DNA of 63,529 nt from Candidatus Omnitrophota bacterium (GTDB lineage Bacteria > Omnitrophota > Gorgyraeia > Aquiviventales > Aquiviventaceae). Numbering within the stretch: the stretch's first letter is position 1; each line of letters opens with the position of its first letter. The stretch is taken from positions 64,586 through 128,114 of the forward strand of contig JAHFGW010000001.1 of NCBI GenBank assembly GCA_023247235.1. The letters are read 5' to 3'. Below are positions 10,151 through 56,680 of this stretch, in pieces. The position numbers and the translations under genes are program-made. The notes under the pieces were generated by a model. The model was not told the origin of the DNA. It saw only the letters and a list, made by a program, of their open reading frames with translations, and ran no database searches.

Positions 10151-10200
10151 AGGAAAGGGATGGTTCTCCAGGAAGGGAAAACTTCGTTTTCCCTTCCTGG
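10151..10200 (+). repeat. AGGAAAGGGATGGTT box followed by a perfect hairpin CCAGGAAGGGAAAAC-TTC-GTTTTCCCTTCCTGG
   Basis: 15-bp perfect stem read from the sequence. A near-identical copy lies at 17594-17640 and a variant palindrome at 17732-17759. Confidence 0.8.
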
Positions 10201-10259: not shown

Positions 10260-10332
10260 GGCGGTGTAGCTCAGTTGGCAGAGCAGCGGACTCATAAGCC
10301 GCGGGTCACAGGTTCGAATCCTGTCACCGCCA
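10260..10332 (+). tRNA. tRNA-Met (anticodon CAT, elongator-like); CCA not encoded
   Basis: Hand-folded cloverleaf GGCGGTG/TA/GCTC-AGTTGGCA-GAGC/A/GCGGA-CTCATAA-GCCGC(one mismatch)/GGGTC/ACAGG-TTCGAAT-CCTGT/CACCGCC/A. The T arm and variable loop resemble elongator Met. An Ile2 (lysidine) identity cannot be excluded by eye. Confidence 0.85.
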
Positions 10333-15874: not shown

Positions 15875-16249
15875 GTGCGCGGCTCGGCGCTGGCCTGCGG
15901 CGTCGATGTCGTAGAGTTGGCGCGGCTCGCGCAGGCGATCCGGCGCGGCGGGAACGCCTTCATGCGGCGTATCTTCACGGTGCATGAGACCGCCTACGCT
16001 CGGGCGCGCAAGCGCACGACACTGCAGCACCTGGCGGGGCGCTTCGCCGCGAAAGAAGCCGTCATCAAGGCCCTGGCACAGGTCGACCCGCAGCATGTCC
16101 CTGCCATGAATCAAATCGAGATCCGCAATGACCGTCACGGCCGACCATCGGTGGTGCTCATGGACCGACGCCGCCGGCGGGTCAAGATCCATGTAAGCCT
16201 CTCCCATGTCGATACCGTGGCCGTGGCCAGCGCGATCGTGACGCGATGA
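15875..16249 (+). CDS. acpS: holo-[acyl-carrier-protein] synthase
   Basis: GVDVVEL...FTVHE...RFAAKEAVIKAL...SLSH pattern of 4'-phosphopantetheinyl transferases. I chose an in-frame GTG just after the pdxJ stop; the ORF track starts it at 15785. Confidence 0.8.
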   Translation: MRGSALACGVDVVELARLAQAIRRGGNAFMRRIFTVHETAYARARKRTTLQHLAGRFAAKEAVIKALAQVDPQHVPAMNQIEIRNDRHGRPSVVLMDRRRRRVKIHVSLSHVDTVAVASAIVTR

Positions 16250-16403
16250 TCCCACCACCTGCTACCGGCCGCCGCAGGCGGCCTCGGCCGGCTCGTTACG
16301 GCGAAGCACCGGGACGCCGGCCGTGGCGGTGGCGTATGATGTCTCATAGGTCTCGAGTCCCCGCCTCCCAGTGTCGCCACCGCCAGGAGCAGGTGGGGGA
16401 ATG
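16247..16403 (+). mobile_element. 157-nt terminal-inverted-repeat element, copy A (acpS stop TGA to nnrD start ATG)
   Basis: TGATCCCACCACCTGCT...AGCAGGTGGGGGAATG. Blocks at positions 31-54 and 71-88 are identical to copy C at 43698-43854. ATGA is present at both flanks. Confidence 0.8.
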
Positions 16404-17264
16404 ATCCCTGCCGGCCTGCTGCCGCCTCGTCAACCCGAAGCACACAAGGGGGATGCGGGGCGGGTGCTGATCGTGGCCGGCTCGATGCATTATAGTGGGG
16501 CGGCCGCGCTGTGCGTGCTGGGAGCCTTGCGCGCGGGGGCAGGGCTGGTGACGCTCGCCACGCCCAAGAGTTTGCACGGCCCGATGGTGCAGAAGCTGAC
16601 CGAGGCGATGTGCATCCCGCTGCCGGAGACGCGGGAGGGCAGTGTGAGCATCCAGGCGCTGCCCGAGTTGGCACGCCTGGGCGATCGGGCGGAGGCGGTT
16701 GCGATCGGGCCGGGCCTGTCGCAGGAGGCGCAGACGAAGACGCTCCTGCGGCAGCTGCTGCCCAAGATCGTCAAGCCGCTGGTGGTGGACGCGGACGGGC
16801 TGAATGCCCTGGCCGAAGAGGTTGACCTCCTCAGGCGCCGGACGCTGCCATGCATCCTCACGCCGCATCCGGGCGAGATGGCGCGGCTGATTCGCCAGTC
16901 GGCGGAGGCGGTGCAGTCGGATCGCGAGCGGATCGCCGGAGAGTTTGCAAAGAAATACCAAGTGGTCGTCGTCCTCAAAGGCCACCGCAGCGTTGTGGCG
17001 AATTTCGACGGCACCCTCTACGTCAACGAGACAGGGAACCCGGGGATGGCGTCGGGGGGCTCGGGGGATGTGCTGACAGGCATGATCGTCGGCTTGCTGG
17101 GGCAGCGCCTTTCGCTCTTTGATGCCGCACGCCTGGGCGTCTACCTGCACGGTTTGGCCGGCGACCTGGCTGCTCGCGAGAAGGGCGAGATAGGCTTGAT
17201 TGCGTCAGACGTCGCCGATAGAATACCGCTGGCGATCCGCCAGTATCAGAGCTCGCCGACGTAG
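16401..17264 (+). CDS. nnrD: ADP-dependent NAD(P)H-hydrate dehydratase (YjeF C-terminal/Nnr family)
   Basis: HKGDAGRVLIVAGS and GGSGDVLTGMI motifs. Start taken at the ATG created at the right end of the 157-nt element. Confidence 0.85.
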   Translation: MIPAGLLPPRQPEAHKGDAGRVLIVAGSMHYSGAAALCVLGALRAGAGLVTLATPKSLHGPMVQKLTEAMCIPLPETREGSVSIQALPELARLGDRAEAVAIGPGLSQEAQTKTLLRQLLPKIVKPLVVDADGLNALAEEVDLLRRRTLPCILTPHPGEMARLIRQSAEAVQSDRERIAGEFAKKYQVVVVLKGHRSVVANFDGTLYVNETGNPGMASGGSGDVLTGMIVGLLGQRLSLFDAARLGVYLHGLAGDLAAREKGEIGLIASDVADRIPLAIRQYQSSPT

Positions 17265-17584: not shown

Positions 17585-17640
17585 TTTCCTTTCAGGAAAG
17601 GGATGGTTTCAAGGAAGGGAAAACTTCGTTTTCCCTTCCT
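17585..17640 (+). repeat. small hairpin TTTCCT-TTC-AGGAAA, AGGAAAGGGATGGTT box and perfect hairpin AGGAAGGGAAAAC-TTC-GTTTTCCCTTCCT
   Basis: Second copy of the element at 10151-10200. Confidence 0.8.
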
Positions 17641-17731
17641 GATCGAGCCTACATTCTGTATCGTTCGTTCCTCTTAGGAAAGGGAGACCAGGGAGTCCCG
17701 CGGTTAGGTAGGCCATGGCGGGACGACCGCG

Positions 17732-17759
17732 AGGAGGGAAAACCTAGGTTTTCCCTCCT
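17732..17759 (+). repeat. 28-nt perfect palindrome AGGAGGGAAAACCTAGGTTTTCCCTCCT (variant of the GGAAGGGAAAAC hairpin)
   Basis: Read directly from the sequence. It is preceded at 17676-17697 by an AGGAAAGGGAGACCAGGGAG box that resembles the box in the other two copies. Confidence 0.75.
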
Positions 17760-17792
17760 AGGGAGCCCCCCTAAGAGGACTGCTGGTGCGAC

Positions 17793-18623: not shown

Positions 18624-19814
18624 ATGGCCAAAGCCAAATTCGAACGGACCAAGCCCCACGTGAACATCGGCACGATCGGCCACGTCGATCACGGCAAGAC
18701 GACCCTGACCTCCGCGATCACCAAGGTCCTCGCCCGCGCCGGCCTGGCCCAGGCGCGCAGCTACGAGGAGATCGACAACGCCCCCGAGGAGCGCGAGCGC
18801 GGGGTGACGATCAACGTCCACCACGCCGAGTACGAGACCCCGGCGCGCCACTACGCCCATGTCGACTGCCCGGGCCATGCCGACTACATCAAGAACATGA
18901 TCACCGGCGCCGCCCAGATGGACGGCGCCATCCTGGTCGTCTCCGCGGTCGATGGGCCCATGCCCCAGACCCGTGAGCACATCCTCCTGGGCCGCCAGGT
19001 CGGCCTGCCCACGATCGTCGTCTTCCTCAATAAGGTCGATGCGGTCGAAGACCCGGAGCTCTTGGACCTCGTCGAGCTGGAGGTCCGGGAGCTCTTGACC
19101 AAGTACGGCTTCCCGGGGGAGAAGACCCCGATCATCCGCGGCTCGGCCCTGCTCGCCGCCCAGGGCGACCAGGGGGAGCTGGGCGAGCCGGCCATCACGA
19201 AGCTCCTGGCCGCGGTGGACACCGCCATCCCCACCCCCACGCGCGACATCGAGCGGCCCTTCCTCATGTCGGTCGAAGATGTCTTCTCGATCACCGGCCG
19301 CGGCACCGTGGGGACCGGCCGCGTGGAGCGCGGCAAGGTCACCGTGGGCCAGGAGGTGGAGATCGTCGGCCTCAAGGCGACCAGCAAGTCCGTCGTGACC
19401 GGCATTGAGATGTTCCGCAAGCTCCTGGAGGAGGGCATCGCCGGAGACAACCTGGGGGTCCTGCTGCGCGGCCTCGAGAAAGCGGACCTGCAGCGGGGCA
19501 TGGTCCTGGCCGCCCCGGGCACGATCACCCCGCATACGACCTTCACGGCCGAGGTCTACTGCCTCACGAAAGAAGAAGGCGGCCGCCACACCCCCTTCTT
19601 TAAGGGCTACCGCCCGCAGTTCTACTTCCGCACGACCGATGTGACCGGCGCGGTCACCTTGCCCGAGAAGACCGAGATGGTCATGCCGGGGGATAACATC
19701 CGCGTGACGGTCGAGCTCATCCAGCCCATCGCCATGGAGAAAGAGCAGCGCTTCGCCATCCGCGAAGGCGGCAAGACCGTCGGGGCGGGCGTCATCACGG
19801 AGATCCTCAAGTGA
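18624..19814 (+). CDS. tuf: elongation factor Tu, copy 1
   Basis: [18 protein letters not shown] and NKVD GTPase motifs, 396 aa. Identical to the product of 34302..35492. Confidence 0.97.
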
Positions 19815-34301: not shown

Positions 34302-35492
34302 ATGGCCAAAGCCAAATTCGAACGGACCAAGCCCCACGTGAACATCGGCACGATCGGCCACGTCGATCACGGCAAGACGACCCTGACCTCCGCGATCACC
34401 AAGGTCCTCGCCCGCGCCGGCCTGGCCCAGGCGCGCAGCTACGAGGAGATCGACAACGCCCCCGAGGAGCGCGAGCGCGGGGTGACGATCAACGTCCACC
34501 ACGCCGAGTACGAGACCCCGGCGCGCCACTACGCCCATGTCGACTGCCCGGGCCATGCCGACTACATCAAGAACATGATCACCGGCGCCGCCCAGATGGA
34601 CGGCGCCATCCTGGTCGTCTCCGCGGTCGATGGGCCCATGCCCCAGACCCGTGAGCACATCCTCCTGGGCCGCCAGGTCGGCCTGCCCACGATCGTCGTC
34701 TTCCTCAATAAGGTCGATGCGGTCGAAGACCCGGAGCTCTTGGACCTCGTCGAGCTGGAGGTCCGGGAGCTCTTGACCAAGTACGGCTTCCCGGGGGAGA
34801 AGACCCCGATCATCCGCGGCTCGGCCCTGCTCGCCGCCCAGGGCGACCAGGGGGAGCTGGGCGAGCCGGCCATCACGAAGCTCCTGGCCGCGGTGGACAC
34901 CGCCATCCCCACCCCCACGCGCGACATCGAGCGGCCCTTCCTCATGTCGGTCGAAGATGTCTTCTCGATCACCGGCCGCGGCACCGTGGGGACCGGCCGC
35001 GTGGAGCGCGGCAAGGTCACCGTGGGCCAGGAGGTGGAGATCGTCGGCCTCAAGGCGACCAGCAAGTCCGTCGTGACCGGCATTGAGATGTTCCGCAAGC
35101 TCCTGGAGGAGGGCATCGCCGGAGACAACCTGGGGGTCCTGCTGCGCGGCCTCGAGAAAGCGGACCTGCAGCGGGGCATGGTCCTGGCCGCCCCGGGCAC
35201 GATCACCCCGCATACGACCTTCACGGCCGAGGTCTACTGCCTCACGAAAGAAGAAGGCGGCCGCCACACCCCCTTCTTTAAGGGCTACCGCCCGCAGTTC
35301 TACTTCCGCACGACCGATGTGACCGGCGCGGTCACCTTGCCCGAGAAGACCGAGATGGTCATGCCGGGGGATAACATCCGCGTGACGGTCGAGCTCATCC
35401 AGCCCATCGCCATGGAGAAAGAGCAGCGCTTCGCCATCCGCGAAGGCGGCAAGACCGTCGGGGCGGGCGTCATCACGGAGATCCTCAAGTGA
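34302..35492 (+). CDS. tuf: elongation factor Tu, copy 2
   Basis: Protein identical to copy 1. Confidence 0.97.
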
Positions 35493-38479: not shown

Positions 38480-38482
38480 CGA

Positions 38483-38570
38483 TGTGTAATGTCCAATGTG
38501 TCGTGTGTAATGGATAAGGTGCGCACGATGCGTGTTTTCCCATTACACAGTACACGTGACACATTACACA
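38483..38570 (+). repeat. heptamer-array hairpin H6 (TGTGTAA TGTCCAA TGTGTCG TGTGTAA TGG / 26-nt loop / CCA TTACACA GTACACG TGACACA TTACACA)
   Basis: Hand pairing gives 26 of 31 positions paired, including one G-U. It fills the rplB|rpsS spacer and is followed by GAGGAG and the ATG. Confidence 0.85.
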
Positions 38571-38590
38571 GAACATTTTCCTGAGGAGAC

Positions 38591-38926
38591 ATGGGACGCT
38601 CAGCGAAAAAAGGCGCGTTCGTGGATGAGTCGGTGCTGCGCAAAATCGCGCGGGCGCGGCAGGCGAACGACCGCAAACCCATCAAAACGTGGTCGCGGCG
38701 CTCGACCGTGACGCCCGACTTTGTGGGGATGAACTTCCTGGTCCACAACGGCAAGGGATTTCAGCCCGTCTACGTCAGCGAGCACATGGTGGGGCATTGC
38801 CTGGGAGAGTTCGCCCCGACGCGCGTCTTCAGGCGCCACGGCGGCGTGAAGAAGGCCGAGGCGCCCGGCGGCGCGCCGGCTCCGGCCGCGGCGGCCGGCG
38901 GCGGCGCGGGCGCTCCCGGAAAGTGA
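38591..38926 (+). CDS. rpsS: 30S ribosomal protein S19 (Ala/Gly/Pro tail)
   Basis: [10 protein letters not shown]...[14 protein letters not shown] block. Confidence 0.95.
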
Positions 38927-40525: not shown

Positions 40526-40731
40526 TGGCTCAGAAGCGGCCCAAGGCTCGCGAGCTGCGGACGATTTCCACGGAAGAATTGCGCGACCAAGTCCAGGCGC
40601 TGCGCCAGGAACTCTGGGAAACCCGCCTGAAGGCTCGCAGCGGCGCGGCCACGGCGCCATCTCACGAGATCCGCCAGGCGCGCCGGCAGCTTGCGCGCGT
40701 CCTCACGATCTCACGGGAGCGAACAACATGA
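40525..40731 (+). CDS. rpmC: 50S ribosomal protein L29
   Basis: LRTISTEELRDQVQALRQELWETR pattern, 68 aa. Confidence 0.92.
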   Translation: MAQKRPKARELRTISTEELRDQVQALRQELWETRLKARSGAATAPSHEIRQARRQLARVLTISRERTT

Positions 40732-40778
40732 TCCCACCACCTGTTGCTAGCGGCGCCACACGCGATGAACAACCCATG
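40729..40778 (+). mobile_element. truncated copy B of the 157-nt element (left end only), rpmC stop to rpsQ start
   Basis: TGATCCCACCACCTGTTGC is identical to the first 19 nt of copy C, after which the sequence is unrelated. ATGA is present at both flanks (40728-40731, 40776-40779). Confidence 0.65.
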
Positions 40779-41810: not shown

Positions 41811-41816
41811 CCATGA

Positions 41817-41880
41817 TGTGTAATGTTCAATGTGTAACGTGTAATGGTCAGGAGCTTGAGGGGAGCATTACACAGAATGC
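41817..41880 (+). repeat. asymmetric heptamer element H7 (TGTGTAA TGTTCAA TGTGTAA CGTGTAA TGG ... single TTACACA unit)
   Basis: Four left-arm heptamers face only one complementary unit (41868-41874), plus a local GCATT/AATGC stem. It lies in the rplX|rplE spacer. Confidence 0.7.
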
Positions 41881-43133: not shown

Positions 43134-43700
43134 ATGTCTCGTATCGGTCGGTTGCCTGTCCCGGTGCCTCAAGGCGCCACAGTGAAGCTTGACGGCGCGC
43201 GCCTGACGGTCGAAGGGCCGAAGGGCACGCTCGCCGTGACCGTGCCCGGCGTGCTGGCAGTCGAGCTTGGCAGCGAGCAGGTCGTGGTGGCGCGCCGTGA
43301 TGAGGAGCAGCAGACGCGCGCCCTGCATGGATTGTACCGCGCGCTGGTGGCCAACATGGTGCAGGGCACCGTGAACGGGTTTTCAAGGAATTTGGAGATT
43401 GTCGGCGTTGGCTACCGGGCCGAAGTGTCGGGCAAGCGGTTGACGCTGCACGTGGGGTTCTCGCATCCCGTCGTGCTGCAGATCCCCGAAGGGCTGGCGG
43501 TCGAGCTGCCCAAGCCGACGACACTCATCGTCAAGGGCGCCGACAAGCAGCTTGTGGGCCAGTTCGCCGCCACGATTCGGCGCACTGCGCCTCCAGAGCC
43601 GTACAAGGGGAAGGGGATTCGATACGCGAACGAGACGATCCGCCGCAAGGCGGGCAAGGCGGCCACGGGCGCGGCCGCCAAGAGCGGCGGGGGGTCATGA
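43134..43700 (+). CDS. rplF: 50S ribosomal protein L6
   Basis: MSRIGRLPVPVPQGATV start. Internal ATG of ORF 43092..43700. Confidence 0.95.
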   Translation: MSRIGRLPVPVPQGATVKLDGARLTVEGPKGTLAVTVPGVLAVELGSEQVVVARRDEEQQTRALHGLYRALVANMVQGTVNGFSRNLEIVGVGYRAEVSGKRLTLHVGFSHPVVLQIPEGLAVELPKPTTLIVKGADKQLVGQFAATIRRTAPPEPYKGKGIRYANETIRRKAGKAATGAAAKSGGGS

Positions 43701-43854
43701 TCCCACCACCTGTTGCCGGCCGCCAAAGGCGGCCTCGGCCGGCTCGTTACGCCCTGGTACCGCTGCGCCGGCCGTGGCGGTGGCGTCGTATGTCTCAGAT
43801 ATCGTACATCCCCGCATTCAACCCTCGTCACCGCCAGCAACAGGTGGTGGGATG
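43698..43854 (+). mobile_element. 157-nt terminal-inverted-repeat element, copy C (rplF stop TGA to rplR start ATG)
   Basis: TGATCCCACCACCTGTTGC...GCAACAGGTGGTGGGATG. Internal GGCCGCC-AAA-GGCGGCC hairpin and GGCGGTG/CACCGCC pairing. ATGA at both flanks. Confidence 0.85.
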
Positions 43855-44220
43855 AGCCACACGGCGCGCCGCCAGCTCGGCCGACGGGCCCGCCACCGGC
43901 GGATCCGCAAACGAGTCATCGGGATGCCTGATCGGCCAAGAGTGTGCGTGTTCCGCAGCCACAAGCACCTGCAGGCGCAGCTGATCAACGACGTGGAAGC
44001 TAAAACGCTCCTGGGTGGCTCGACGCTGGACAAGCAAGTCCGCCAGGCGGTCAAGGGAGGGTCGCGCACGAGCTTGGCGCAGGCCTTGGGCTCCGCGCTG
44101 GCCCAAGAGGCCGGCAAACTTGGTATCACCCAGGTGGTCTTCGACCGCGGGGGCTATGTGTATCACGGGCGCGTCAAGGCATTCGCCGAGGCGCTGCGCC
44201 AGGGAGGCCTCCAGTTCTGA
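43852..44220 (+). CDS. rplR: 50S ribosomal protein L18
   Basis: [32 protein letters not shown] block. Internal ATG of ORF 43552..44220. Confidence 0.94.
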
Positions 44221-46670: not shown

Positions 46671-47339
46671 GTGCGGCTCGCATTATTGGGCCCGCCCGGC
46701 GCGGGCAAGGGTTCTTTGGCATCGGTATGCGAGGAGCGCCTGGGATTGCGGCACCTCTCCACCGGCAATATTTTCCGGCAGGAGATGGCCCGCGGGAGCG
46801 CGTTGGGACGCCGGGTGCGGCGCTTCGTCACGGCCGGAACGCTCGTGCCGGATTCCCTCGTCGTCCAGGTGATGGTGCAGCGTCTGCGACGGCTGCCCCG
46901 CGCGGCCGGGGTCGTGCTCGACGGCTTCCCCAGGACGGTGGGTCAGGCTCGGGGCCTTCAGGCGGCCATGGGACGTGTCAAACCGCTCGACGGGGTGGTC
47001 TATCTGGAGACTCCTGAGCGGGTGTTAGTCGCCAGGTTGTCCGGGCGGCGGGTGTGCGCGCAATGCGGCGCCAACTTCCACCTCCGGACCATGCGCCCAC
47101 GGCGCGCCGGCCGGTGCGACCGATGCGGGGGACCGCTCACCGTGCGCAACGACGACCGGCCGGACACGATTCGGCGCCGCCTGGCGATTGACCGGGCGAA
47201 AGCGCAACCGCTGCTTCGCTATTACGAGCGGCACGGGATGTTGCACCGCATCAACGGGGCCGGACGCTTGGGCACTGTCTTCGACCGGCTCGTACGACTG
47301 TGCCGCCGCGAGGGATGGCTCAAGGGCTCCCGGCGATGA
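46671..47339 (+). CDS. adk: adenylate kinase (zinc-lid form)
   Basis: GPPGAGKGS P-loop, CAQCG...CDRCGG lid, GTG start. Confidence 0.93.
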   Translation: MRLALLGPPGAGKGSLASVCEERLGLRHLSTGNIFRQEMARGSALGRRVRRFVTAGTLVPDSLVVQVMVQRLRRLPRAAGVVLDGFPRTVGQARGLQAAMGRVKPLDGVVYLETPERVLVARLSGRRVCAQCGANFHLRTMRPRRAGRCDRCGGPLTVRNDDRPDTIRRRLAIDRAKAQPLLRYYERHGMLHRINGAGRLGTVFDRLVRLCRREGWLKGSRR

Positions 47340-47493
47340 TCCCACCACCTGCCGCAGGCCGCCATCGGCGGCCGGGCCGCGCTGGACGCGCACCCAAGTG
47401 TGCCTGCGGCCCTGGCGGTGCGCGCCACGGATCATCGGATCGATTGAGCTGGGCCTTGAAGGCAAGGCACCGCCGGCGGCAGGTGGTGGGATG
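47337..47493 (+). mobile_element. 157-nt terminal-inverted-repeat element, copy D (adk stop TGA to map start ATG)
   Basis: TGATCCCACCACCTGCCGC...GCGGCAGGTGGTGGGATG. It has the same length and the same conserved sub-stems as copies A and C, but a diverged interior. Confidence 0.85.
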
Positions 47494-48261
47494 ATCGAGC
47501 TCAAAAGCCGTCAAGAGATCGAGACCATGGCGCAAGCCGGCGCGGTCGTGGCGGCGCTTCTTGAGTATCTGGCCGATCTGACACGGCCGGGCATCACCAC
47601 GAAAGCGCTGGATGAGGAAGCCCGCGCGTTTTTGCGGGCCAAGAAGGCCAAGCCGGCGTTCCTTGGCTACCGCGGGTTTCCCGCGTGCATCTGCGTGTCC
47701 GTGAACGAGGAAGTCGTGCATGGAATTCCCGGCGAGCGCGAGATCCGGCACGGAGACTTAGTGAGCCTTGACGCCGGCGCGGTCGTGGATGGGTTTTACG
47801 CCGACGCAGCCCGAACAGTTGCGGTTGGCGTCGTCTCGCCGGAAGCCCAACGGCTGCTCGAGACCGCTGAGCGGGCGCTGGCCGAGGGGATCCAGCAAGC
47901 GGTCGTGGGACGGCGCGTGAACGACATTGCGCATGCCGTGCAGCGCCTGGTCGAGGCGGAGGGGTTCAGCGTCGTTCGGGAGTTCGTGGGGCATGGGATC
48001 GGCCGCGCGATGCACGAGGAGCCTCCGGTGCCCAACTTCGGTCCCCCGAACATCGGGCCGCGCCTGAAGGCCGGCATGGTGCTGGCGATCGAGCCGATGG
48101 TGACGGCTGGGCGGCCGGACGTTGAGATCCTCGCGGATGGGTGGACGGCGGTCACCAAGGATCACTCGCTGGCAGCGCACGCGGAGGACACGGTGGCCGT
48201 CACGGACCACGGCGCGCGCATCCTGACGAGGGTGCTGGATGCCCAAAGAAGAGGCGATTGA
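47491..48261 (+). CDS. map: methionine aminopeptidase type I
   Basis: [13 protein letters not shown] start, metal ligands (D..D..H..E..E pattern, FVGHGIG). Internal ATG of ORF 47188..48261. Confidence 0.94.
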
Positions 48262-48457: not shown

Positions 48458-48571
48458 ATGAAGGTCCGCGCGTCTGTGAAACGGGTTTGTGCCAAGTGCA
48501 AGATTATCCGCCGCCAGCGGGTGGTGCGCGTCATTTGTAGCAACCCGAAACACAAACAACGCCAAAAATAA
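48458..48571 (+). CDS. rpmJ: 50S ribosomal protein L36 (zinc form)
   Basis: Hand translation [37 protein letters not shown]. It is below the ORF-track cut-off. Confidence 0.92.
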
Positions 48572-48572
48572 C

Positions 48573-48662
48573 TGTGTAATGTGTAACGTGTAATGCAAGA
48601 GCCGTAATCCAGGTGTTCACGAACGGCAGTTCCATTACACATGACACCTTACACATTACACA
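48573..48662 (+). repeat. heptamer-array hairpin H8 (TGTGTAA TGTGTAA CGTGTAA / 38-nt loop / TTACACA TGACACC TTACACA TTACACA)
   Basis: Read directly from the sequence. It fills the rpmJ|rpsM spacer and is followed by GAGGAG and the ATG. Confidence 0.85.
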
Positions 48663-51925: not shown

Positions 51926-53100
51926 CCGCGCTCACCCTGCCTGAACGCCTTCGCGACGTCGAAGGCTCACCCACGCTTGCCCTGGCCGCCAAGGCCAAGG
52001 CGCTGGCCAACGCCGGCAAGCCGGTCTTGGATTTTACGGCCGGCGAGCCGGATTTTCCGACGCCGGATCCCGTCAAGCGTGCAGGCATCCGGGCGATCGA
52101 GTCGAATCAGACCCGCTATACCCCGGTCGCAGGATTACCCGAGCTGCGGGCCGCCGTCGCCCAGCAGGTCAACCGGACCCGGCACACGAACTATTCCGCT
52201 GCCCACGTGCTGGTGAGCTGCGGCGCCAAGCACGCGCTCTTTAACGTCTTCCAGGCGCTGTGCCAACCGGGCGACGAAGTCATCCTGCTCAGCCCGTATT
52301 GGGTCAGCTTTCCGGCGCTGGTCCGTTTGGCAGGCGCCAAGCCGGTGATTGTGCCGACACAGGAGGCGGACGGCTTCCAGCCGGATCTTGCGGCGATCCG
52401 CAACGCGATATCCGGCGCGACCAAAGCGCTCGTCATCAACAGCCCGAGCAACCCGACCGGCGCCGTCGTCTCCAAGGCTCGACTGGAGGCGTTGGCCGCC
52501 CTGGCGCTGGAGCGGCACCTGGTCGTGATCAGCGATGAGATTTACGACGAACTCGTCTACCCGCCGGCCGCCCATCGCTCTATCACGCAACTCAACCCGC
52601 AGATGGCGGATTGCACCGTGCTCATCGGCGGGGTCTCCAAGACCTACAGCATGACCGGGTGGCGGATTGGGTGGGCCGTCGGCCCGGAACCGCTCGTCGA
52701 GGCCATGACGACGCTGCAGAGCCATTCGACGTCGAATCCCACGTCCATCAGCCAGCATGCGGCCTTGGCCGCGCTGACCGGCGAGCAATCCTCTGTTGCG
52801 GCGATGCGAAAGGAATTCCTGGCTCGCCGTGACCGGCTGGTCCAGGGCCTGGCTGCGCTCCCCGGGTTGCGTGTCAAGACACCCGAGGGAGCGTTCTATG
52901 CGTGGTGCAATGTCCGTGGCCTGGGGCAGTCGGCCCAGGCCACCGCGCAACAGTGGTTGGACGAGGCGCTCGTGGCGACGGTCCCCGGCGAAGGATTCGG
53001 GTCCTCCGAGCACATCCGCTTCAGCTTTGCGACGAGCCTGCAGACGATTGACGACGCGTTGCGGCGGCTCGACAGCTGGTGCCGCAAACGGAGTTCATAG
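51889..53100 (+). CDS. aspartate/aromatic aminotransferase, class I PLP enzyme
   Basis: DFTAGEPDFPTP, NSPSNPTG and SKTYSMTGWRIGW (PLP lysine) motifs. The start is GTG 51889 or TTG 51922. Confidence 0.85.
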   Translation: MDAQAIASTRALTALTLPERLRDVEGSPTLALAAKAKALANAGKPVLDFTAGEPDFPTPDPVKRAGIRAIESNQTRYTPVAGLPELRAAVAQQVNRTRHTNYSAAHVLVSCGAKHALFNVFQALCQPGDEVILLSPYWVSFPALVRLAGAKPVIVPTQEADGFQPDLAAIRNAISGATKALVINSPSNPTGAVVSKARLEALAALALERHLVVISDEIYDELVYPPAAHRSITQLNPQMADCTVLIGGVSKTYSMTGWRIGWAVGPEPLVEAMTTLQSHSTSNPTSISQHAALAALTGEQSSVAAMRKEFLARRDRLVQGLAALPGLRVKTPEGAFYAWCNVRGLGQSAQATAQQWLDEALVATVPGEGFGSSEHIRFSFATSLQTIDDALRRLDSWCRKRSS

Positions 53101-53228
53101 TTCATAGTTCATAGTTCATAGTTCGTAGTTCGGTGTTCGGTGCGGATGAGCTTCAGACTGATCTCGCTCGGAGATACTCTAGCATTGCCCTTACTATGAA
53201 CTACGAACAATGAACACCGAACGAATGA
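53092..53228 (+). repeat. heptamer-array hairpin H10 (AGTTCAT x4, AGTTCGT, AGTTCGG, TGTTCGG / 48-nt loop / CTATGAA CTACGAA CAATGAA CACCGAA CGAATGA)
   Basis: Seven left and five right heptamers. The array starts inside the last codons of the aminotransferase and ends 1 nt before the icd ATG. Confidence 0.85.
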
Positions 53229-56547: not shown

Positions 56548-56569
56548 CCTTACTCGGAGAGCCTTCTCC

Positions 56570-56680
56570 TGTGTTATGTGTAAGGTGTAAGGTGTCATGT
56601 GCATGACCAAATTGAAGAGGCTCGTCCGCGATACCTGTTCGGTCGCATTACCTTACGCATTACGCATGTCACATTCAACA
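56570..56680 (+). repeat. heptamer-array hairpin H11 (TGTGTTA TGTGTAA GGTGTAA GGTGTCA TGTGCAT / loop / CATTACC TTACGCA TTACGCA TGTCACA TTCAACA)
   Basis: Same TGTGTAA/TTACACA unit family as H6-H8, but outside the ribosomal operons. Confidence 0.8.

Follow-up and report, generated by a model that had tools for sequence, protein, structure and literature searches.

A probable MITE family at ATGA stop/start overlaps that rebuilds the codons of both neighbouring genes

Results

The insert that separates adk from map in this stretch of DNA (copy D) is probably a non-autonomous MITE of a large unnamed family, which occupies ATGA overlaps between genes, rebuilds both the stop and the start codon, is constrained in its reading frame and would serve as a relay cistron between its neighbours. 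As a MITE the element is of a known kind; what is new is a codon-rebuilding, frame-keeping and probably coupled mini-cistron.

Copies in the window

Copy D proper covers 152 nt of the + strand (47340..47491) of the window, the whole 63,529-nt stretch that was analyzed, and runs from a terminal T to a terminal A with the ends TCCCACCACCTG and CAGGTGGTGGGA and a TGA on either side. The left TGA (47337..47339, + strand) is one half of a 3-bp target duplication and at the same time the stop codon of the adk ORF (46671-47339, + strand; Pfam ADK match); together with A47336 it represents the original ATGA. The right TGA of the duplication (47492..47494, + strand) is the stop codon of a mini-ORF of 52 codons plus stop (47336..47494, + strand) that has no Pfam match, and the start codon of the map ORF (47491-48261, + strand; Pfam Peptidase_M24 match) is composed of the last base of the element, A47491, and the TG of this right duplication. 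Counted from the first base of the adk stop codon to the last base of the map start codon (47491-47493), the span of 47337-47493 has exactly the 157 nt given in the first-pass annotation of this DNA, and the same span is common to copies A (16248-16404) and C (43699-43855). Homologues of Map with approximately 70-73% identity carry the labels Candidatus Omnitrophica or Omnitrophota.

The other copies in the window likewise lie on the + strand. Copy A (16250..16401, 152 nt; mini-ORF 16246-16404) is located between acpS and a NAD(P)HX dehydratase gene and has a right end with two mismatches, and copy C (43701..43852, 152 nt; mini-ORF 43697-43855) is located between rplF (L6) and rplR (L18). Copy B (40732..40775), between rpmC (L29) and rpsQ (S17), is a truncated remnant consisting of the left end only, and reading from the ATG at 40728 runs in frame into the S17 ATG at 40776. 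The genes flanking the window copies were confirmed by Pfam. The full copies A, C, and D are all found between ORFs and not inside them, all window copies are co-oriented with their operons, and within the window the element is found at three junctions of the ribosomal-protein gene cluster.

Target duplication and empty sites

One genome per species was scanned for two 11-nt ends separated by a gap of 113-143 nt, which yielded 85 loci, nearly all of them in MAGs labelled Omnitrophota, Planctomycetales or Auribacterota. An identical scan of metagenome contigs yielded at least 120 loci, and more than 200 copies were found overall in the genome MAGs and metagenome contigs. Since perfect 11-nt ends and an interior of 113-143 nt were demanded throughout, degenerate copies and much shorter or longer ones are under-sampled. 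The 12 terminal bases are near-invariant and consist of T or C followed by CCCACCACCTG, where positions 2-12, i.e., CCCACCACCTG itself, are set by the search pattern.

The outer 3-bp flanks were equal in 80 of the 96 genome-scan hits (TCA 42, TGA 27, TTA 5, plus CGA, ACA, CCA, CTA, and TGG pairs) and in 107 of the 119 metagenome matches listed (TGA 55, TCA 43, others). TGA or TCA is the duplicated triplet in approximately 90% of the copies, TCA/TCA and TGA/TGA being one site seen on opposite strands. TGA, TCA, TTA, and TAA make up about 90-95% of the equal flanks, and the equal triplets include some that are neither stop nor start codons. On insertion, a T(G/C)A target is duplicated over 3 bp. 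We discarded the alternative of an offset end combined with duplication of all four bases of ATGA, because the first and last bases of the element change together (T...A or C...G), whatever base precedes the TGA; they pair as T...A in 56 of 68 genome copies and 87 of the 98 metagenome matches listed, and as C...G in 9/68 and 8/98, respectively.

Empty sites are present in the closest relatives. The genes at the adk|map site overlap by 4 nt in the relatives L086, L087, and L088, and a 4-nt gene overlap is also found at the L6|L18 site in L087 and L089. Other genomes have other junctions of the same operon filled; L090, for example, has copies at S17|L14 and S5|L15 and a short degenerate one at adk|map. 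In one MAG, copies that are approximately 90% identical and free of indels occur at different, unrelated loci, indicating that the element is not a decaying relic. The earlier statement that copy D reflects more than the decay of a dead transposon agrees with this finding; to read that statement as meaning "not a transposon" would be wrong, in view of the 3-bp target duplication and the empty sites in relatives.

The element is small and without transposase coding, has terminal inverted repeats and a target duplication, and occurs in dispersed copies with presence/absence polymorphism, all of which are characteristic of MITEs; a related autonomous IS with the same ends was not found. Neither a transposase nor a full-length partner with these ends, nor unpaired ends 400-5000 bp apart, were detected in the 1.38 Mb of DNA flanking the copies, which is a weak negative as it comprises only loci around MITE copies. 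As candidates for an autonomous element, all long-range end pairs with a matching duplication were discarded, as each turned out to be two separate MITE copies. The putative chemistry of transposition is deduced from the inverted ends and the duplication. IS5-family and PIF-Harbinger-type transposons make 3-bp TNA target duplications and have terminal inverted repeats. The present family resembles them in its T-N-A duplication (TGA/TCA, fewer TTA/TAA) and its terminal inverted repeats, but differs from them in that no transposase and no known IS with the ends TCCCACCACCTG were found and in that CCA, CGA, ACA, and TGG duplications occur. A possible assignment to IS5/Harbinger is therefore to be taken as a lead and not as a result.

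Insertion at ATGA overlaps

With every copy turned so that its duplicated triplet is TGA, the left TGA is preceded by an A in 52 of 69 genome copies and in 78 of the 98 metagenome matches listed, while there is little bias in the base that follows the right TGA (T 23, G 20, A 15, C 11; genome set, the sole set tallied). An A before the left TGA with little preference after the right TGA indicates that the original target was an ATGA stop/start overlap, and this asymmetry of the flanking bases points to selection rather than to a preference of the transposase.

The surviving copies are nearly all located at ATGA, where the TGA stop of the upstream gene overlaps the ATG start of the downstream gene. 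The left duplication preserves the upstream stop. The last base of the element (A, sometimes G) together with the right duplication re-forms the downstream ATG or GTG start; among the 69 genome-scan copies this start is ATG in 59 and GTG in 10, and of the 98 metagenome matches listed 90 terminate in A and the other 8 in G. The old ATG, now stranded at the left junction, opens a frame through the element.

In copy D the right end also contains a Shine-Dalgarno-like AGGTGGTG, separated from the map ATG by 3-4 nt depending on the motif end chosen. The duplex of the right arm CAGGUGGUGGGAUG with a generic anti-Shine-Dalgarno tail (not that of this organism) has an energy of -10.7 kcal/mol, compared to -11.6 kcal/mol for GGAGG, and ranks in the top 2% of random GC-rich 14-mers. 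Use of Shine-Dalgarno motifs in related genomes is only moderate.

Length class and reading frame

The length conservation that had been claimed for the copies is not a property of the family, whose lengths range from 119 to 188 nt; what is conserved is the 3n+2 class with an open frame. A length of 3n+2 was found in 124 of 166 copies overall (genome set plus metagenome matches listed). The excess seen in the genome set (50/68, p = 1.6e-11) was replicated in the independent metagenome set (74 of the 98 matches listed, p = 2e-17) and was retained after clustering of related copies (49/75 clusters, p = 2e-8).

A 3n+2 length puts the left ATG in frame with the right-hand TGA, and the frame between them is open in 121 of the 124 3n+2 copies versus an expectation of approximately 40%. 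By set, it is open in 49/50 genome copies and in 72/74 of the metagenome matches listed, compared to about 20 and 27, respectively, when the interiors were shuffled, and the reverse complement of the element is open in only 20 (genome) and 30 (metagenome matches listed). The remaining frames contain about one stop each. Copies with an A before the TGA, that is, with a left ATG, are 3n+2 in 107 of 129 cases, whereas those without it are 3n+2 in 17 of 37 (83% vs 46%; Fisher p = 2e-5), and copies that break the rule contain an internal in-frame stop in 35 of 42 cases. Where related copies differ in length, they do so by multiples of 3 in 25 of 49 cases, which is above expectation. The 3n+2 length without in-frame stops is kept by selection, so that the frame terminates precisely at the right-hand ATGA. 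That copies A, C, and D all have a core of 152 nt accordingly reflects a frame rule at the level of translation and not a fixed size.

A putative relay cistron

The mini-ORFs of A, C, and D each comprise 52 codons and start with MIPPP; they end with QVVG* in C and D and, owing to its degenerate right end, with QVGE* in A. Across the family the ORFs have 38-64 codons and the termini MIPPP... and ...QVVG. The frame has a stop/start overlap (ATGA) at both of its ends, as in a termination-reinitiation coupled cistron, and judged from these sequences each copy probably represents a small relay cistron (MIPPP...QVVG*) that is ATGA-linked to both neighbours. On leaving adk, ribosomes would reinitiate at the left ATGA, unwind and translate the folded element, stop at the right ATGA and begin anew on map, so that translational coupling would outlive the insertion. 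The restart on the downstream gene may be aided by the Shine-Dalgarno-like AGGUGGUG of the right arm. With such a relay, an insertion would cost the operon little. In the wrong frame, ribosomes would overrun the true start out of frame, which would explain both the excess of 3n+2 lengths and the internal stops in the exceptions. About one quarter of the copies are not 3n+2, most of them with an internal stop, and the relay is thus not obligatory.

We considered it very improbable that the mini-ORFs are genuine small-protein genes with a functional peptide, making up a mobile gene family instead of a tolerated spacer. The strongly kept open frame and the conserved termini would be in line with such a role, as would the 38-aa ORF that a gene caller predicts in one of the copies. 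However, the conserved termini are accounted for by the translated inverted repeats, the peptide interiors show no detectable amino-acid conservation, lengths vary between about 41 and 64 codons, the mini-ORF peptides have no Pfam match, and the frame is absent in approximately 25% of the copies.

A more elaborate form of the relay proposal can be put forward tentatively, with a probability that we place below even. It reads the elements jointly as a selfish family specialized for the overlaps of coupled genes, each copy being translationally transparent because it is itself a relay cistron. The invariant ends would have a triple role as transposon termini, as an anti-Shine-Dalgarno/Shine-Dalgarno-like stem and as the codons M-I-P-P-P ... 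Q-V-V-G-stop. At codons 3-5, the invariant Pro-Pro-Pro might, speculatively, stall the ribosome in an EF-P-dependent manner, and a ribosome stalled there would, given its estimated footprint, occlude the 5' arm of the closing stem over its full length, leaving the Shine-Dalgarno-like right arm and the downstream AUG exposed. If this is true, hosts could adjust the expression of ribosomal-protein and other operons via these insertions.

Fold and covariation

The element was proposed earlier to fold, and folding of the copies was in line with this: copy D has a fold energy of -109 kcal/mol compared to -76.8 ± 4.4 kcal/mol for its dinucleotide shuffles (z = -7.34, 0/200), and the corresponding z values of C and A are -7.39 and -4.46. 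All three share one architecture consisting of a closing stem plus three arms. In copy D (all on the + strand) the left arm of the closing stem, which is the terminal inverted repeat, extends over 47340..47355 and the right arm over 47476..47491. The stem has exactly 16 bp; its first 12 positions are conserved, with T-A or C-G at position 1, and positions 13-16 covary. Arm P2 (47357..47373) is the hairpin GGCCGCC-ATC-GGCGGCC that had been reported for positions 21-37 of the 157-nt span, and it covaries across its subfamily. Arm P3 (47374..47412) is formed by GGGCCGCG...UGCGGCCC; compared to A and C, one of its pairs is swapped from C-G to G-C (alignment columns 41/79), and the remainder aligns poorly. 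Arm P4 (47413..47475) is closed by the previously noted pairing of GGCGGTG (47414-47420) with CACCGCC (47468-47474), at about positions 78-84 and 132-138.

A closing stem with at least three hairpins is predicted for 64 of 68 copies, the number of hairpins in the MFE structure being 3 in 38, 4 in 25, 5 in 3, and 2 in 2 copies, and the interior alone has a mean z of -3.7 (68 copies). The interior contains almost no conserved sequence, and the three-arm architecture is held across lineages of 37-82% G+C.

Directly after CCCACCACCTG, copy A has CT, copy C has TT, and copy D has CC, and these dinucleotides face AG, AA, and GG, respectively; pairing is thus kept in 3/3, so that the compensatory changes described for positions 13-14 were borne out. 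They extend to the family (metagenome part: the matches listed), where positions 13-16 form Watson-Crick pairs in approximately 77-94% of 166 copies and switch among C-G, G-C, T-A, and A-T. Position 17 is paired in only 5/68 genome copies and 6/98 metagenome matches listed and is hence mismatched in about 93%. Over positions 13-18, Watson-Crick pairing amounts to 65% within copies versus 40% when arms from different copies were combined. The larger alignment that had been suggested as a check, comprising 26 copies aligned with MAFFT and fitted to no structure, revealed double-sided changes in 16 of 28 consensus pairs, as opposed to 7.8 ± 1.5 when shuffled (0/500) and 2-7 in slid controls, where it should be considered that the 26 sequences were picked for the 5' short hairpin and that kinship alone can exceed shuffles without any structure.

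What keeps the fold

The first-pass annotation had concluded that selection acts on a folded structure, be it RNA or a DNA cruciform. Our data bear out the covariation as well as a constraint on the fold, but an RNA-specific fold is not supported, given the strand symmetry of the pairing. A cis-acting structured RNA between the cistrons, regulatory or stabilizing, whose fold is selected in the adk-map transcript and for which mobility is incidental, would account for the very stable fold, the conserved architecture and covarying base pairs, and the co-orientation of all window copies with their operons. It would also fit the observation that related copies mostly share their orientation relative to the gene (in the genome set, where no flanks are orthologous, 66 pairs agree and 21 are opposed; in the combined set, whose metagenome part consists of the matches listed, the numbers are 98 and 9). 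A constraint at the RNA level normally gives asymmetry between sense and antisense and between G-U and A-C. Here, however, the sense strand is the better-folding one in 80 and the antisense strand in 86 copies (Wilcoxon p = 0.94), and stem positions 13-16 contain 22 G-U versus 25 A-C, the metagenome part of both counts being the matches listed.

This strand-symmetric pairing provides no evidence for mRNA-specific selection of the fold. A fixed orientation of the interior relative to the gene had to be rejected as a strict rule, since one subfamily is present in both orientations, and the open-frame filter by itself would account for a large part of the orientation bias, as only approximately 40% of reversed copies would be open. 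The interior nearly devoid of conserved sequence also stands against an RNA function, as does the lack of a match to any Rfam family: in the whole window only tRNAs reached the gathering score, and at a permissive E-value the best hits of the element had E of about 5. We therefore judge the structured RNA to be improbable. A hammerhead-like CUGAUGA at the left junction was likewise dismissed, because its flank is not conserved. Repeat covariation alone does not prove RNA structure.

We favour a strand-symmetric constraint at the DNA level, in which the fold is required of the transposition substrate or by its machinery, and consider it at least as likely as a function of the sense RNA. Compared with mRNA-level selection, homogenization of the arms by template switching is also at least as likely. 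In bacteria, the correction of quasi-palindromes by template switching is a well-established route of mutation, and such correction homogenizes both halves of strong palindromes and thereby mimics covariation. That the complementarity of the arms stems from mutation and not from selection altogether, through template switching in quasi-palindromes or mismatch correction in extruded hairpins, seems to us unlikely, though somewhat less so than the structured RNA. In its favour, the pathway is already known from bacteria, the pairing is strand-symmetric and almost purely Watson-Crick, and every hairpin covaries whatever its sequence. On the other hand, it leaves unexplained both the sharp 16-bp limit of the stem, with its mismatched position 17, and the persistence of three arms over such a broad range of G+C contents.

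Discussion

The present family shares with the bacterial MITEs (Correia/NEMIS of Neisseria, ERIC, Chunjie of Geobacter uraniireducens) the small size, terminal inverted repeats, short duplication, absence of a transposase and many copies, as well as a stable fold-back structure and a life inside operons without destroying them. Correia and ERIC elements are co-transcribed fold-back repeats. Chunjie is described, in a title cited by the 2024 review of prokaryotic MITEs, as an insertion that left the operon structure undisturbed (PMC10969869). Together with the Rickettsia repeats discussed below, these are the published elements that come closest to the present family in their behaviour. Unlike known MITEs, the present family sits almost exclusively on the ATGA stop/start overlap and rebuilds both codons, has a 3n+2 length with an open frame that ends on the next start, and conserves its sequence at the 12 terminal bases alone, the interior being constrained in fold but not in sequence. 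The same review contains neither the term "start codon" nor "stop codon" (0 occurrences) and describes no codon-rebuilding or coupled mini-cistron MITE (PMC10969869). A literature search by concept and by the end sequences returned no earlier description of the element.

Selection on the reading frame of a selfish repeat is also known from the Rickettsia palindromic elements (RPE), palindromic mobile repeats of approximately 150 bp that are in frame and translated within host messages (PMC10969869). However, RPE are inserted within coding sequences and contribute a segment to the host protein, whereas the present element lies between genes and forms its own cistron bounded by overlapping stop and start codons. 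The full copies are not of this type; an RPE-like situation was seen solely in copy B, which is in frame with S17.

Termination-reinitiation coupling at ATGA/TGATG overlaps has been described for native gene pairs (Huber et al., 2019; PMC6728339). The element resembles these pairs in that the ATGA junction would be used twice, from the upstream gene to the mini-ORF and from there to the downstream gene, and in that the upstream frame carries a purine-rich Shine-Dalgarno-like motif in its last codons. None of the papers on coupling that we retrieved describes a mobile element that makes use of the ATGA junction and reproduces it.

Short conserved ends, a variable interior in which pairing is kept, compensatory changes and a defined unpaired position are features that the family has in common with REPINs/REP elements mobilized by RAYT and with integron attC sites. 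REP/REPIN and attC are not known to make a target duplication and are recognized in single-stranded form by HUH or tyrosine recombinases. The present ends read TCCCACC..., the GTAG/CGTC tag is absent and a 3-bp duplication is present, all of which sets the family apart from REP/REPIN. The tag itself is a feature of REPs according to the title and abstract of PMC3733652. Unlike in integron cassettes, the genes flanking the present element are core housekeeping genes.

The family suggests that a transposon which imitates the coupling signal of its host can colonize even the densest and most essential genome regions without causing polar damage. It may represent a natural portable coupling spacer, and its hundreds of diverged copies constitute a data set on what ribosomes need for termination and restart. 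For genome annotation, short "hypothetical proteins" beginning with MIPPP in Omnitrophota and neighbouring candidate phyla should be regarded as transposon copies.

Small Open Reading Frames Within the Element

At the locus L090 of another genome, the copy of the GC-rich element located between the S17 and L14 genes (1513-1629) is present in the public gene call as a 38-aa protein, whose frame overlaps both neighbors by 4 nt. Short hypothetical proteins beginning with MIPPP or MIPTT in Omnitrophota and the neighboring candidate phyla are probably copies of the element. Codons 3-5 of the predicted mini-ORF, which are encoded by the invariant left end (window 47342-47350 and the equivalent positions in all copies), specify Pro-Pro-Pro, a known ribosome-stalling motif in the absence of EF-P.

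Tandem copies of the element were found at L017 (3137-3292 and 3298-3435), L014 (64-341), and the right flank of L040, and a single duplication triplet is common to both adjoining copies. Since the ATGA target is remade by every insertion, chains of the putative relay cistron can accumulate.

Remnant B (window 40728-40778) has lost all of the element but its left end. The ATG overlapping the L29 stop codon opens a frame that reads MIPPPVASGATRDEQP through the remnant and is in frame with the S17 start codon. As this frame runs into the S17 start, S17 may carry an N-terminal extension of transposon origin or be accessed via a 16-codon leader.

Other Repeats in the Window

A second family, distinct from the GC-rich element, consists of AT-rich fold-back repeats in 66%-GC surroundings. 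Copies are located at window positions 38481-38591, 41815-41880, 48571-48662, and 56568-56680, and outside the window at a relative's locus (L089, 7880-7995). Units resembling TGTGTAATG are arranged as inverted triplets (TGTGTAATGTGTAACGTGTAATG ... CATTACACATGACACCTTACACATTACACA) on either side of a spacer of approximately 40-50 nt. The copy at 48571-48662 is flanked on one side by the S13 gene and has upstream a short ORF that is probably rpmJ (L36). The gene that begins a short distance downstream of the copy at 38481-38591 looks, from its N-terminal sequence, like S19. In both cases, the left edge closely follows a stop codon and the right edge closely precedes a Shine-Dalgarno sequence and ATG. 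In one relative, the adk|map junction contains a repeat resembling this AT-rich family in place of the GC-rich element.

Tandem heptamer-like repeats, (GTTCATA)n, were identified at 53089-53222. A distance of 70 nt separates them from an inverted partner, and sequence of a related kind is found near the window start (610-635). Near-identical perfect hairpins, CAGGAAGGGAAAAC-TTCG-GTTTTCCCTTCCTG (10167-10199, 17609-17641, and 17729-17761), adjoin tRNA genes (at 10260, 17316, 17496, and 17793) and could represent terminators or processing signals. Lastly, an exactly identical 300-nt direct repeat (18624-18923 and 34302-34601, 15.7 kb apart) probably marks two putative tuf gene copies, judging from its setting, a region of ribosomal-protein genes with tRNA genes nearby.
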